Origin: Sulfolobales archaeon
GTDB lineage: Archaea; Thermoproteota; Thermoprotei_A; Sulfolobales; AG1
DNA: 64,000 nt
Assembly (NCBI GenBank): GCA_038867615.1
Contig: JAWBYA010000005.1
Span: forward strand, 73,750 to 137,749
Direction: 5' to 3'
The notes beneath the pieces were generated by a model. It was not told the DNA's origin, searched no databases, and saw only the letters and a program-made list of their open reading frames with translations. A program made the translations under genes and the position numbers. Shown one piece after another: positions 2,322 through 29,136 of this stretch (position 1 is the first letter of the stretch; every line of letters starts with the position of its first letter).

Positions 2322-3209
2322 TCACCTCATAAACAGCCTGCCCCTCCCAATAAGCAGTGTAGATGCGATCGCTAGATAGGCTATTATAGGCTTATAAGCA
2401 GTATCTACTCCGAAGAATCTGTTGAAAAACCACATACCGAGATTCTCTGAGAAACCTATTATAAAGCCCCCAGCTATTGTTAGCGGTATACTCCTAATAC
2501 CACCTATGATCGATGATGCAAAGATCCAGAGGAGAAGCCTCCACCCAGTCTCAGTATTTATACTAGTATAGAAAGCCCACAGAGCCCCCATAGCACCTGC
2601 TAGGAGGCCAGAGACTATCCACGTGATCCTCCTAACCCTCCATACAGGAATACCAGAGGCCGAGGCTAGCTCCGGGTTGCTTGCAAGAGCCCTCATAGCC
2701 TTCCCGATCATGGTTCTATGCCTAAACATGTAGAGAGAGACCGAGGCAACGCCTAGAAAGCCTAGACTGAGTATGTGGAGATTAGTTATAGGCGAGCCCA
2801 TAGCATAGGCTATTGGTGTAAGACTATATCTAGAGGATAGGAAGAGCATGTCAGAGTAGTCAGCATATATAGACCACAGATATCTTATGAGAAGCATAAC
2901 ACCTATAGAGGCTATGAGGAGCTGTAGAGGCGAAGAACCCCTCCTATAGAGAGGCTTATACACAGACTCATCAACAGCAAGAGCAAGAATAGAGGAGACC
3001 ATCATAGCGAGAAAAAGAGCCATGATAGGATCAAAACCCCCTATCGTGGCAAGAGCAGCAGCATAAGCACCTATAGTCACATACTCGCTAACAGCAAAAT
3101 TAGCTATCCTCGTAACACTATAACTAATAGTGAGGGAGAGGGCGCCGAGAGAATATATAGATCCTGCGAGAAGCCCCTGAAGAGAGTTCCTCAGAACCTC
3201 GTCGAGCAG
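2322..3209 (-). CDS. livH: Branched-chain amino acid ABC transporter permease, probable CTG start
   Basis: Frame stays open upstream of the tracked GTG (3080) and encodes LLDEVLRNSLQGLLAGSIYSLGALSLTISYSVTRIANFAVSEY, a typical LivH N-terminus. The best-placed start is CTG at 3209 after GGGGT. Confidence 0.88.
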   Translation of the reverse strand: MLDEVLRNSLQGLLAGSIYSLGALSLTISYSVTRIANFAVSEYVTIGAYAAALATIGGFDPIMALFLAMMVSSILALAVDESVYKPLYRRGSSPLQLLIASIGVMLLIRYLWSIYADYSDMLFLSSRYSLTPIAYAMGSPITNLHILSLGFLGVASVSLYMFRHRTMIGKAMRALASNPELASASGIPVWRVRRITWIVSGLLAGAMGALWAFYTSINTETGWRLLLWIFASSIIGGIRSIPLTIAGGFIIGFSENLGMWFFNRFFGVDTAYKPIIAYLAIASTLLIGRGRLFMR

Positions 3210-20200: not shown

Positions 20201-20428
20201 CCGTTTGTCTCCATCCAATCCTATAGTAGATCGACCATGTGGGTTTGTTAACAGCAGTTGAGCCCAACAGTGTAGGGCTCTCGCCTACCGAGAGATCATC
20301 CCCTGGATGGCTTGGAGCAATGCTCCCATCACCACCCAGAGTCAATATAGAGACCAAACCATCACCAAAAACAATTCCAACCATAAGATTATAAATATCT
20401 CCCACGAATATCAAAAAGAAAACACCCC
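20201..20428 (-). mobile_element. Family-2 non-coding dispersed element, degenerate copy inside the liv operon
   Basis: Minus strand GGGGTGTTTTCTTTTTGATATTCGT...GGTGATGGGAGCATTGCTCCAAGCC...GACAAACGG is colinear with 28522-28793. Confidence 0.75.
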
Positions 20429-26357: not shown

Positions 26358-27305
26358 CTACATCGAGCTTTTCTCATAATAGCCACATCTCTTGCAATAC
26401 CCTCTCTTTACACGCCCCCCACAGATTCTGCAGGTATCCCGAGCCTCTGCCTTTCTAAGCCCTCCGAAGATCCTTAGGTATCTTGATAATAAGTACGCCT
26501 GATCCCTCGACCTAGGCTCCAGGATCTTTGACACACTCTCAATAAGATCTTCTGTTACCATCGAAGCCCATATATTGCTGAGCGTGACAGACCCGCTCCC
26601 AACCTCTATAGGTTCTTTTAACCTATAGTAGGATGGAATCGATAGATCCTCTAGCAGGAGTCTCAGGATCTCTTTACCCCTAGCTACCCTAGAATAGGAG
26701 ATCTTGCACTCGGGAGGTATTTTGAGGGCGAGCTCCACCACGCTTTTCGATGCCAATGGCTGGATCACCTCTACCCCTAACTCCTCTCCAAGCCTTGAGG
26801 AGGAGAACTCCATATAGCTTGATAGATCCTCTATATATCTCGATAGATCCTCTAGCCTGTAGAGATGCATATATGAATATCCAGCAAAGAGCTCGTCACC
26901 AGCATCGCCTGTATAGACGCATCTACACCCAAGCTTGGCTGCATATTCCAGGGCTATGTATACTGAGACATCGTTCCTCACCTCTATAGGATCGAAGGTA
27001 TCCATGATCCTTATCACCTCGTCCGTAGCCCTAAGGGCTTCTGAAACACTGAAGATCTTCTGGTGGATCTCTATCCCCAGTTCTCTCGCAACAAGAGAAC
27101 CCCAGTAGAGATCCTTTGTAACGCTCTCCTCAAGACCTACAACTATGCCCTTGAGGGGTATTTTCACAATTTTTCTTGCAATAGTTGCTATATATGATGT
27201 GTCTATCCCACCACTCATTATAATGCAGTCGCAAGCCCTTGACTCGATTTCTTTTGAAACGAGATCAGTGAGGATCTTTGAGGCATTGATGCAATCAATC
27301 CTCAG
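26358..27305 (-). CDS. Asparagine synthetase C-terminal-domain-only protein with C-terminal Zn ribbon, probable CTG start
   Basis: SGGIDTS PP-loop, TGDAGDELFAGY and CxxC...CxxC. The frame extends upstream (LRIDCINASKIL...) to CTG at 27305 after GGTGTG. Confidence 0.85.
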   Translation of the reverse strand: MRIDCINASKILTDLVSKEIESRACDCIIMSGGIDTSYIATIARKIVKIPLKGIVVGLEESVTKDLYWGSLVARELGIEIHQKIFSVSEALRATDEVIRIMDTFDPIEVRNDVSVYIALEYAAKLGCRCVYTGDAGDELFAGYSYMHLYRLEDLSRYIEDLSSYMEFSSSRLGEELGVEVIQPLASKSVVELALKIPPECKISYSRVARGKEILRLLLEDLSIPSYYRLKEPIEVGSGSVTLSNIWASMVTEDLIESVSKILEPRSRDQAYLLSRYLRIFGGLRKAEARDTCRICGGRVKRGYCKRCGYYEKSSM

Positions 27306-27354
27306 AAAGACACACCATTTTATCCCTCGTCACAGAGATATTAATGGACTAGAT

Positions 27355-28521
27355 ATGGTTACCAACCTACCCCCAGAAGCTAGATCTAAGTTCGCTAAGT
27401 ATCAAGAGGCAAAAACCCCTGAGGAGAAGCTCCAGGCATTGCAAGAATTCCTCTCAGCAGTTCCGAAGCACAAGGGTACCGAGAACCTTGTTAGATGGGC
27501 TAGGAGGAGGATGGCAGAGCTTAGAGAAGAGATAGAGAGCAGAAGATCTAGAAGAGGGGGCGGAGGACCCTCTCTATTCACCATCGAGAGGTCTGGGGCT
27601 GCACAGCTCATAATGATCGGTTTTACAAAGTCTGGAAAAACAGCCCTTCTGGGGAGGCTTACCAATGCTAAGGTCACGCCATCCGATATACCCTACTCAA
27701 CCAGAATCCCTATCCCAGGGATGCTTGATTACGAGGATATACAGTTCCAGCTCGTCGAAGCCCCCTCTATTATAAGGGGTGATAGGGATTCGAGATGGAA
27801 TAGGAGATCCCTAGGGCTTTTGAGAAACGCTGACGGTGCTTTGATGGTTATAGACCTCTCCCAAAACCCCTCCGAGGATTATAAAGAGCTTGTCGAGATC
27901 CTTGAGGAGGAGGATATAAGGATCACCAAGCCTAGGGGCTATGCTGTTGTCGAGAAGGACCAGGGATCGCCGGGCATAAGGATCATATATAACGGCAAAC
28001 TTATAGACGGGACTAGCGAGGATGTGAAAAAGATCCTTGAGGGCTATAGGATCTATAGAGCCACTGTAAAGCTCTATGGAGAAGTAACCCTAGACGATAT
28101 CGAGAACGCGGTTATGGGGGCAACCATATATAGACCCTCGATCGTTATGGGTAACAAAGCCGATCTAGATGATGGGAGCAAGTGCGAGGAACTGAGAAAA
28201 ACAGTACCCCCAGAGATCCCTGTTATATGTTGCTCAGCACTAACCGGGAAAGGCTTGGAGAACTTGGGCAAAGTTATATTCGAGAGGCTAGAGATCATGA
28301 GGATATATACAAAACCCATAAACGCCGAGCCATCTAAAAAACCCCTCGTGATCAAGAGAGGATCAACGGTCCTCGAAGTAGCCAAAGCAATACACAAAGA
28401 TCTATATAGGGGCTTTAAATACGCAAGGATCTGGGGACCCTCAGCAAACTACCCAGGCGAGAGAGTGGGTTCAGACCACATACTCAAAGACGGGGATATC
28501 GTAGAGATACACGCAGCATAG
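27355..28521 (+). CDS. DRG/OBG-family GTPase with TGS domain
   Basis: MVTNLP start, PKHKGTE, GFTKSGKT, NKAD and C-terminal TGS (LKDGDIVEIH). Confidence 0.93.
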   Translation: MVTNLPPEARSKFAKYQEAKTPEEKLQALQEFLSAVPKHKGTENLVRWARRRMAELREEIESRRSRRGGGGPSLFTIERSGAAQLIMIGFTKSGKTALLGRLTNAKVTPSDIPYSTRIPIPGMLDYEDIQFQLVEAPSIIRGDRDSRWNRRSLGLLRNADGALMVIDLSQNPSEDYKELVEILEEEDIRITKPRGYAVVEKDQGSPGIRIIYNGKLIDGTSEDVKKILEGYRIYRATVKLYGEVTLDDIENAVMGATIYRPSIVMGNKADLDDGSKCEELRKTVPPEIPVICCSALTGKGLENLGKVIFERLEIMRIYTKPINAEPSKKPLVIKRGSTVLEVAKAIHKDLYRGFKYARIWGPSANYPGERVGSDHILKDGDIVEIHAA

Positions 28522-28793
28522 GGGCTGTTTTCTTTTTGATATTCGTAGGAGGTATTTACAAGCTTTGAAAGGTAGTGTCCTCGGTGTGGGTCTTCCCACA
28601 CCAGCCCAGGTGGCGATGGGAGCAGCGCTCCAAGCCACCCGGGGCAAAGCTAGATGGGAGCCGCGTGCCGTTTGGCTCGACGGTCGCCCATGACCCCGCA
28701 GGATCAGAGATCCGAGATCCTGAGGGTGGAGACGAAAACCCCTGGATGTGACCATGAATAAAATGAGTGGAATGAACATCCAGGGACAAACGG
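28522..28793 (+). mobile_element. Family-2 non-coding element, best-preserved copy, highly structured RNA
   Basis: T-tract, TATA-like TATTTACAA, hairpins GGTGTGGG/CCCACACC, CCCAGGTGGC/GCCACCCGGG, CAGGATC/GATCCTG and CCCTGGATGT/ACATCCAGGG followed by ACA. Ends GACAAACGG like the copy at 20201. Confidence 0.7.
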
Positions 28794-28829
28794 GTAAAGA
28801 ATAAAAGCCCAGCATAGATAATAAATTCA

Positions 28830-28888
28830 GGGGCGGCGCGCCGGGGAGAACCCCCGTGACCGGGGTTCGAATCCCCGCCCGGCTACCA
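28830..28888 (+). tRNA. 3' half of tRNA-Gln (positions 38-76 at 28851-28888) with a 21-nt GC-rich leader, candidate split tRNA
   Basis: C CCCCG TGAC CGGGG TTCGAAT CCCCG CCCGGCT A CCA. The CCCGGCT-A acceptor strand matches crenarchaeal tRNA-Gln (5' AGCCGGG). Leader ends GGAG-AA. TATA AATAAAAG at 28800-28807. Confidence 0.8.
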
Positions 28889-29136
28889 CTATTATAACAG
28901 TGAACCCGGAACCTGTTTCCAGGAATTCATATTTATACTAGCTTCTCTACACTACCCTTTGGTTTTATAGTTCGTAGGTATAACACCGTGAAGCACTAGC
29001 CTCGGTTTTATGGCTTTTATATATCCCCTTATATGAGTTATATGGGCTGTCATATGGAATACCAACCCTCCACGCGATCAAAAACTCCACTCACACATCT
29101 CCGATCAATTGTTATTATTAACAAACCAAAGATCTG

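Follow-up and report, generated by a model that had tools for sequence, protein, structure and literature searches.

The window analysed here, a 64,000-nucleotide stretch of contig JAWBYA010000005.1 (positions 73,750 to 137,749) from a Sulfolobales archaeon, harbors a 272-bp element at positions 28522-28793 of the + strand. Sequence comparison identifies this element as a miniature inverted-repeat transposable element (MITE) of Desulfurococcaceae, which derives from IS607, resembles the palindrome-associated transposable elements (PATEs) and carries a standalone omega-RNA cassette. The element starts with GGGCTG at 28522, ends with ...CATCCAGGGACAAACGG at 28793 and consists of a left end fused to a right end; stop codons in all three sense frames leave no open reading frame (ORF). 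The left-end segment (LE, 28522-28572) is the presumed promoter and comprises a T-tract (28528-28538) and the TATA-like box TATTTACAAG (28553-28562), and the right end (28609-28793) forms the omega-RNA scaffold module. An initial annotation of this DNA had described an intact, self-contained structured RNA of about 270 nt with a T-tract, a TATA-like box and at least four hairpins. This description was borne out by a discrete, strongly folding element with six helices in its scaffold, which matches the covariance model introduced below with 192.1 bits.

The element belongs to a mobile repeat family

The host assembly comprises 2.22 Mb in 28 contigs and is 94% complete. A BLAST search of this assembly with window positions 28500-28900 resulted in 53 pieces. 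Typical copies cover 28551-28793, some extend back to 28522 and some are devoid of an internal 42 nt. A covariance model of the last 185 nt of the element (28609-28793), termed R1, yielded at least 60 matches in the same genome at E≤0.001, a search in which 150 of 821 candidates were scored, and 57 matches at E≤1e-5. At the latter threshold, 34, 45, 49, 93 and 149 matches were obtained in the five other genomes of the genus and 0-7 in each of eight genomes from the other two genera of the family, so that 10 out of 14 family genomes contain a match. With 192.1 bits, the window copy ranks tenth of 62 matches; the best tnpB-linked copy reaches 205.3 bits, and the scores of decayed copies drop to 27-60 bits.

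A second, truncated copy is located in the window at 20201-20428 on the - strand (C5:94050-94177 by BLAST). Its LE and the hairpins H0 to H5 are still present, the terminal hairpin is missing, and 20201 is the last position of its tail ACAAACGG; the R1 match covers 20201-20336 (-) with 58.3 bits. The end shared with position 20201, already noticed in the initial annotation, is that of this copy.

In all copies, similarity ends directly after ...AAACGG at position 28793. In the sister genome G002, the end of the GTPase gene that precedes the element is joined directly to the sequence that follows it, position 423 of a query spanning window 28100-29100 abutting position 694, and in the sister genome G003 the insertion is present at the same site with 92% identity. 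The species represented by G002, which provides the only clean empty site, is 89% identical and shows a few base differences at the joint, which leaves room for a target duplication there. Metagenome contigs entering the element from other copies diverge at 28793 in four out of four runs, with 5, 7, 9 and 5 loose ends; no contig joining across the element as at an empty site was found in these four DNA runs, which contain only repeat-type breaks and loose ends at 28793. The right boundary at 28793 is thus fixed by the stop of copy similarity, the empty-site joint of the sister genome and the divergence of metagenome contigs. Since GG stands at both junctions, the boundaries as a whole are ambiguous by up to 2 nt. 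In conclusion, 28522-28793 is a mobile multi-copy repeat rather than a unique RNA gene, and the window copy is a polymorphic insertion which is absent in one sister species.

The scaffold module terminates tnpB genes

Five matches to the TnpB TNB domain (PF07282) were detected in the own genome, two of which are directly followed by homologues of 28609-28793. The match at C1:985-1179 is followed by a module at 969-783, and that at C2:203360-203554 by a module at 203344-203164. The open frames of both tnpB genes run through the module. By BLAST, the window copy is 79% identical to the tnpB-linked module at C1:783-969, in line with the similarity to tnpB 3' ends anticipated in the initial annotation. 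For every 2 tnpB-linked copies, this genome holds about 58 standalone ones.

A scan of public genomes revealed 79 loci encoding relatives of the C1 TnpB, which come from Desulfurococcales, Acidilobaceae, Thermofilaceae, Vulcanisaeta, Methanomethylicota and others. The R1 module was found in 73 of these 79 loci across the Thermoprotei; the remaining six are contig-end cuts or partial matches. Throughout the clade (loci L084-L162 as well as C1:751-2142 and C2:203114-204277 of the own genome) the tnpB ORF covers nearly the whole scaffold. A TAG stop within the 3' strand of the terminal helix closes the frame in 32 of 59 loci, its last base being situated 10 nt before the module end. The stop lies 9-42 nt before the module end in 6 loci, early stops occur in 11, and in the other 10 the frame continues into the flank. 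This last group includes five near relatives from the genus of the window (L084, L085, L087-L089), in which the stop TAG is changed to CAG together with a compensating change on the other strand, so that the tnpB frame runs on into whatever flank follows. In the scaffold module of the window copy, relics of the TnpB C-terminal coding sequence are spread over three frames.

The conserved scaffold ends at 28793 and variable flank follows directly, which puts GTAAAGAATAAAAGCCCAGC (28794-28813) in the position of the guide; this predicted guide segment is defined by its position directly 3' of the scaffold only. By homology, 28609-28793 can be regarded as the counterpart of the module that ends the tnpB genes of this clade, here occurring without tnpB. 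Homology and covariation together argue for the first of two readings offered in the initial annotation, namely a standalone TnpB guide scaffold with its guide in the next ~20 nt.

Profile comparisons assign the protein encoded by the linked gene to TnpB. The 463-aa product of the C1 gene (C1:751-2142) matches NF040570 (RNA-guided endonuclease TnpB) with an E-value of 5.5e-24 over profile positions 43-388 of 389, and TIGR01766 with 56.8 bits at a cut-off of 32. A profile built from 14 clade members matches solved structures of TnpB, Cas12f and CasPhi, with a value of ~1.6e-7 for ISDra2 TnpB (8bf8/8h1j). Invariant in 14 out of 14 clade sequences are Asp206, Glu294 and Asp379 (D206, E294, D379), which we take to be the RuvC triad.

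A well-kept MITE copy at C1:10855-11036 (+) is situated directly upstream of a different tnpB gene (C1:11364-12743, +, 460-aa frame), which is not followed by an R1 module. The arrangement at C1:10855-12743 suggests that two TnpB element families have inserted into, or next to, one another.

Fold and covariation of the scaffold

The 294-nt stretch of the initial annotation folds with a minimum free energy of -129.4 kcal/mol, compared to -95.6 ± 5.2 kcal/mol for shuffled sequences (z -6.45), and none of 200 shuffles was as good. The scaffold module is composed of six helices, H1 (28609-28614/28634-28639), H2 (28619-28623/28627-28631), H3 (28654-28658/28687-28691), H4 (28659-28662/28674-28677), H5 (28694-28705/28716-28726) and the last hairpin H6 (CCCTGGATG / CATCCAGGG, 28740-28748/28777-28785), followed by the tail ACAAACGG (28786-28793). 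The last hairpin with an ACA and then AACGG behind it, as described initially, is therefore present. Upstream of the module, fold and copy comparison indicate a further hairpin H0 (GGTGTGGG-TCTT-CCCACACC, 28583-28602), which is found in MITE copies, is missing from the two tnpB-linked copies and takes the place of H1 and H2 in short MITE variants.

RNAalifold recovered only 20 pairs from a MAFFT alignment, because variable helices were misaligned; the structure was then specified by hand from the window sequence and tested. Five of the six helices are supported by covariation. In the tnpB-linked set (79 model matches) 86.0% of the cells are paired, in comparison to 31.5-52.9% when the partners are slid by 1-3 columns. 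Covariation among copies, on which the initial annotation had made its reading depend, is found in this set as changes on both sides in 39 of 43 pairs. Compensatory cells number 443, versus 150.4 ± 9.3 in shuffled alignments, none of 500 having as many, and the covariation score is 0.344 versus 0.111. The 62-copy set, with both-side changes in 26 of 49 pairs and 141 cells versus 54.5 ± 6.6, and a MAFFT alignment of 44 copies agree with the tnpB-linked set. Examples are the terminal helix, which occurs as CCCTGGATG/CATCCAGGG, CCCTAGAGG/CCTCTAGGG and CCCTACCGC/GCGGTAGGG, and helix 4 with the variants AGCC/GGCT, AGGC/GCCT, TCCC/GGGA and GGGC/GCCC. On the strength of these comparisons the six-helix fold of the scaffold module is considered real. 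The ratio of G.U to A.C cells, 213:170 in alignment A2 and 92:34 in the best-aligned helices of the tnpB-linked alignment A3, shows an excess of G.U and thus favors the tnpB-sense strand.

The loop of H4, CCGTT(T) at 28668-28673, is a candidate pseudoknot partner of the tail AAACGG (28788-28793). CCGTT and AACGG are near-invariant and complementary, while the surrounding H4 stem covaries, and 84.9% of the cells are paired. A pseudoknot between loop and tail is a weak candidate only.

The loop of H5 is formed by a 7-nt tandem duplication, two copies of GAGATCC at 28707-28720. The sequence AGAGATCCGA (28706-28715), previously proposed as a K-loop-like cap, arises from this duplication in 7 of 62 aligned copies and does not represent a conserved motif; one metagenome contig in run X6 is devoid of the 7 nt at 28707.

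Left end and IS607 parent

The left end of the window copy, about 50 nt long, aligns with the LE of IS607 elements in the sister species G003 (L176) and in Thermogladius (L091) and with that of a tnpB-only copy on C1. In the Thermogladius genome the LE is followed by an ORF with HTH_17 (1.8e-14) and Resolvase (6.7e-25) domains, and at locus L138 by an HTH_17/MerR plus Resolvase protein in two pieces. G003 shows the order left end, tnpA, tnpB and R1 module within ~1.96 kb. This agrees with the IS607 family, in which autonomous members have, ahead of tnpB, a gene for a serine recombinase with a MerR-type HTH at its N-terminus. The LE motif was matched 33 times in the own genome and is present in 22 of the 79 tnpB loci. 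A conserved TTTATAAG is located ~35 nt inside the LE. At that place the window copy has TATTTACAAG, which differs at two positions. Accordingly, TATTTACAAG is the putative TATA box of the element, and the LE presumably acts as the promoter driving tnpA-tnpB in autonomous elements. A reading of positions 28553-28572 as leftover C-terminal coding sequence of TnpB was rejected, as the alignment shows left-end sequence.

The base before GGCTG is a G in 29 of the 33 own copies and in 18 of the 22 others, and the right end finishes in GG. The presence of GG at both ends fits the GG core dinucleotide reported for IS607, for which PMC10690162 also describes precise, duplication-free excision.

Two transposase genes were rejected as possible partners of the family. 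The Y1 tnpA of G004, the one intact copy in the genus, is part of an unrelated IS605 element without similarity to the MITE. The only Resolvase match of the own genome, C23:6616-7053, has its catalytic domain at the very N-terminus and neither LE nor module beside it, and is hence not regarded as the cognate IS607 tnpA. Behind this resolvase gene, at C23:7070-7361, GC-rich hairpin-forming repeats of the type CCCCGCCCTGAAGGGCG... were observed. Repeats of the same type flank or interrupt an IS605 tnpA/tnpB pair in G004 (L163, G004:C18, ~1300-1400 and 2680-3020), and look like another small structured repeat family.

A kink-turn-like motif in the last hairpin

Kink-turns (K-turns) are characterized by tandem G.A/A.G pairs and a 3-nt bulge, flanked by a canonical (C) and a non-canonical (NC) stem. 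Read by these rules, the interior of the last hairpin (28749-28776) contains a K-turn-like motif. The NC stem is formed by GGAUG/CAUCC. On the 5' strand, U-GA (28749-28751) is followed by the C stem CCAU (28752-28755) and a variable loop (28756-28766); on the 3' strand, the C stem GUGG (28767-28770) is followed by the bulge AAU (28771-28773), GA (28774-28775) and A28776. Of 66 tnpB-linked copies, 43 have retained the GA/GA signature, also where the stem has a wholly different sequence, as have 28 in a set of 58 that consists mostly of MITEs. All three pairs of the C stem are formed in only 14 of the 66 tnpB-linked copies. The last hairpin may form a K-loop in many members of the family.

A more far-reaching proposal sees a true K-turn or K-loop in the last hairpin and makes the host protein L7Ae a structural component of TnpB ribonucleoproteins in Thermoprotei; the ~58 cassettes would serve as a dispersed guide library for a single TnpB, with the scaffold doubling as TnpB C-terminal coding sequence. 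Taken as a whole this proposal is speculative, and it would be unlikely to hold in all its parts. A full-text literature search found no report of L7Ae or a kink-turn with archaeal omega RNAs, transposases are not mentioned in the L7Ae study based on RNA immunoprecipitation sequencing, and the RAGATH-18 RNA of bacteria has been named as a possible carrier of a kink-turn. The K-turn question is nevertheless the only part of the present analysis that could teach something new, namely a host role in transposon guide-RNA particles. The K-turn-like motif and the near-complete ORF overlap are the two features worth a specialist's glance.

Neighboring genes and the split tRNA-Gln

The element is preceded by a gene for a DRG/Obg-type GTPase with MMR_HSR1 and TGS domains (27145-28521, +), whose stop codon TAG (28519-28521) abuts the element start at 28522. 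On the downstream side, after 36 nt, follows a split tRNA-Gln 3' half (28830-28888, +), composed of the leader GGGGCGGCGCGCC, T-arm, acceptor strand and CCA; the initial annotation had correctly seen a tRNA half directly downstream. The leader pairs with two 5' halves, C2:273527-273585 (+) with the anticodon CUG and C9:3025-3085 (+) with UUG, both anticodons being read by eye from the sequence. Two 5' halves complementary to one leader indicate a split tRNA-Gln whose 3' half seems to be shared. Metagenome contigs of other organisms in which only a short insert separates a Gln 5' exon from 28843-28851 look like unsplit, intron-bearing relatives.

A decayed MITE (C9:3091-3359, +) is situated ~12 nt downstream of the tRNA-Gln(UUG) 5' half in the own genome (G000) and at the orthologous loci of G002 and G003 (L169, L170). 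In G001, G004 and G005, which lack this MITE, the 5' half is split as well. Hence two of the three tRNA-Gln pieces have a MITE within 40 nt. With ~60 copies spread over 2.2 Mb this was not to be expected, and the MITE may prefer to insert near genes of this kind. The layout, with one MITE beside the 3' half and one beside the C9 5' half, is that expected of an intron MITE recombining with another copy. However, splitting of the tRNA gene by MITEs was rejected on grounds of parsimony, as the split is present without a MITE in G002 (3' half) and in G001, G004 and G005 (5' half). Precise excision could still mimic such empty sites. That the window copy lies next to the tRNA-Gln 3' half is attributed to chance in its insertion.

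Proposed mechanism and alternative explanations

According to the mechanism proposed here, an internal deletion would have removed tnpA and tnpB and joined the ~50-nt left end to the 185-nt right end with the omega-RNA scaffold. The left-end promoter would transcribe through the scaffold into the flank, giving rise to an RNA of ~200-230 nt whose last ~16-20 nt (GTAAAGAATAAAAGCCCAGC) would represent the guide; a guide length of ~16-20 nt is given in the TnpB literature. TnpB from the full-length copy (C1:751-2142) would bind this scaffold in trans. Excision of the MITE by a serine recombinase would restore the empty site, with a GG-containing transposon-adjacent motif (TAM) next to the guide match, and this site would be cut by TnpB. 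Repair of the vacated site from the occupied sister chromosome would then keep the MITE in place. The occupied locus would escape targeting, since TAM and protospacer are kept apart there by the element. Since the guide matches only the right flank, which lies beside the TAM only after excision, the complex would cut vacated sites. The identity of the element as an IS607-derived MITE with an omega-RNA cassette, together with this trans-guide mechanism, is held with good confidence; within that weight, roughly a quarter goes to the case that this particular copy is silent.

Several observations weigh against this view. Regarding the machinery, the C1 gene is the only full-length tnpB of the family in the own assembly, whereas the C2 gene lacks its N-terminal part (profile positions from 119). 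An IS607 tnpA gave no match in the own assembly, with its completeness of 94%, versus one in each of the five other genomes of the genus, and a Y1 tnpA was not found in the own genome either. No conservation further upstream of the G before GGCTG, and thereby no clear TAM, could be detected in the 33 own and 22 other copies. Regarding the RNA, the promoter, the RNA ends, the strand and the loading of TnpB are inferred. The opposite strand folds about equally well (z -6.24), so that folding energy alone gives no strand, and the strand signal from the G.U to A.C ratio is modest. As A2 and A3 were aligned by fitting to the model, their pair counts lean towards the structure, and H5 falls into two registers between subfamilies and hence looks only 64.6-79% paired. 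For the pseudoknot, two compensatory cases (L040; L093:343-524) stand against several mismatched copies. Finally, the covariation stems mostly from tnpB-linked master copies and says little on selection at the window copy.

According to the strongest alternative, the element is the same MITE but an inert relic, untranscribed or unused, that is drifting with a fold inherited from master elements. The own assembly, with no tnpA and one full tnpB, would suit such a relic, as would the two positions at which its TATA-like box deviates from TTTATAAG, and the state of the family, in which many copies are decayed (27-60 bits by R1) and GA/GA is kept in 28 of 58 mostly MITE copies versus 43 of 66 tnpB-linked ones. 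In contrast, the window copy itself scores 192.1 bits, near the 205.3 bits of the best tnpB-linked copy, and has kept every helix as well as the left-end promoter region. Moreover, standalone omega RNAs are reported to work in trans elsewhere (PMC10691335). An inert relic is therefore deemed a possible, though clearly the less probable, state of this copy.

Much less credible is a domesticated element, whose guide RNA or inserted promoter would serve the host, for instance through RNA-guided occupancy of the promoter that precedes the tRNA-Gln 3' half, or through read-through transcription supplying this half. The guide position does cover the region just upstream of the TATA-like box of the tRNA half, no T-tract terminator is present between 28793 and the tRNA half, and the second MITE follows the C9 5' half at a distance of ~12 nt; in addition, PMC10705468 describes relatives of TnpB that have lost nuclease activity and serve as RNA-guided transcription factors. 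However, G002 has the same sequence ahead of its tRNA half without the insertion, and the C9 insertion is absent in G001, G004 and G005, where the 5' half is nonetheless split. At the occupied locus the element replaces the TAM side, which leaves the guide without a proper target, and the invariant catalytic residues of TnpB give no sign of a dead regulatory protein. The idea raised in the initial annotation, that a transposon RNA had been turned into a cellular guide, thus finds no sign in its favor at this polymorphic insertion, and domestication is considered very improbable.

The second reading of the initial annotation, an H/ACA guide whose pocket ACCCC / GGGTGG would direct pseudouridylation of 23S rRNA, is given practically no credence. 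It had been prompted by complementarity to a 23S domain V sequence, which does exist in the own 23S fragment (C4:226170-227020, -): CCATCCTGGGGGT at C4:226538 would pair with both arms, with one G.U and two unpaired bases in between. However, one-mismatch 13-mer sites of that quality occur 30 times in the genome, compared to ~36 expected by chance. The ACA after the last hairpin and the K-turn-like motif borne by this hairpin likewise seem to speak for an H/ACA RNA. In such RNAs the ACA box is located ~14-16 nt 3' of the pocket. However, the two arms flank helix H5 and pair with each other, two of the three arm-arm pairs being CG in 56 of 62 rows and in 67-69 of 78 rows of the tnpB-linked set, and their sequences vary between copies. 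There is no lower stem around the arms and no ACA at pocket distance after GGGTGG. The hairpin before the ACA at 28786-28788 is an uninterrupted 9-bp stem without a pocket, and the ACA itself varies among 79 rows, with AGA in 3, GGA in 4 and no tail letters in 4. Furthermore, the element is mobile, has at least 60 copies and overlaps tnpB coding sequence.

The comparison with Rfam 15 is in agreement with this. At the gathering score no family matched in the region, the only match of the window being a tRNA-Leu at 1145-1229, and at E≤10 the interval 28300-29100 gave five matches, all far below their cut-offs, so that neither H/ACA nor any other family is matched above cut-off. The 23S rRNA is assembled to ~1.1 kb only (C4:226170-227290, -; model positions 1875-2973 with a gap at 2092-2143) and reaches the contig end; rRNA-based checks on the own genome are accordingly incomplete. 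With this, a false lead is removed, and no new H/ACA-like or domesticated RNA is indicated at this site.

Comparison with known systems

Comparison with published work suggests that standalone omega RNAs and ~260-nt IS607-related MITEs are both already known in print. What is added here is a covariation-backed omega-RNA model of 185 nt with fully defined ends, six helices, a candidate pseudoknot and a K-turn-like motif. It describes an IS607/TnpB clade with a wide distribution in hyperthermophilic Thermoprotei, which Rfam does not cover. With the model R1, hundreds of orphan repeats in these genomes could be annotated, and it could serve as a guide for tests of thermostable TnpB; an archaeal TnpB with relaxed TAM has been characterized in the literature.

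In common with archaeal H/ACA RNAs and L7Ae-bound K-turn RNAs, the element has a hairpin with a K-turn-like GA/GA motif and a 3-nt bulge, with ACA thereafter. The element differs from them by the missing pseudouridylation pocket, its multi-copy mobile nature, the overlap with coding sequence and the lack of an Rfam match.

The omega RNA of ISDra2 TnpB (8bf8, 8exa, 8h1j) belongs to a homologous nuclease (~1.6e-7), and its scaffold also overlaps the tnpB 3' end and ends at the right end, with the guide following. In contrast to the present family, ISDra2 relies on a Y1 transposase and the TAM TTGAT. The two RNAs have no detectable sequence similarity, and the ORF overlap is near-complete only here.

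Standalone omega RNAs of IS200/IS605 elements and omega RNAs encoded by PATEs are described in PMC10691335 and PMC10055086. In common with the element described here are gene-less mobile copies that keep ends and scaffold, effector-bearing copies in the same genome and a guide in the right flank. These RNAs are thought, and in one report shown, to act in trans with TnpB. The family of the window differs by its IS607-type parent with a serine recombinase in hyperthermophilic Thermoprotei, by the ratio of ~58 standalone to 2 linked copies and by a left end that appears to supply a promoter before the scaffold.

A further comparison is with the omega RNAs or right-end RNAs (reRNAs) of IS607 TnpB, represented by the Clostridium botulinum IStron (PMC10690162) and by ISFba1 with its RAGATH-18-derived RNA (PMC11061315). 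The order of left end, serine-recombinase tnpA, tnpB and guide scaffold is shared, while a GG core at the junctions, a pseudoknotted scaffold and the possible RAGATH-18 kink-turn may be shared. Differences are the missing match to RAGATH-18 or any other Rfam family, the lack of a group I intron, the archaeal host and the tnpB ORF running over nearly the whole scaffold; the present system is, moreover, known from its genes alone.

The ~260-nt MITEs of Staphylothermus marinus (PMC2678158), compared here by description only, are of the same size class. They stem from the same family Desulfurococcaceae, occur in 14 copies and are linked to one-ORF IS607 elements. The paper reports inverted repeats and similarity upstream of transposase genes, with no guide RNA mentioned in it, and relates the MITEs to the region upstream of IS607 orfB genes.

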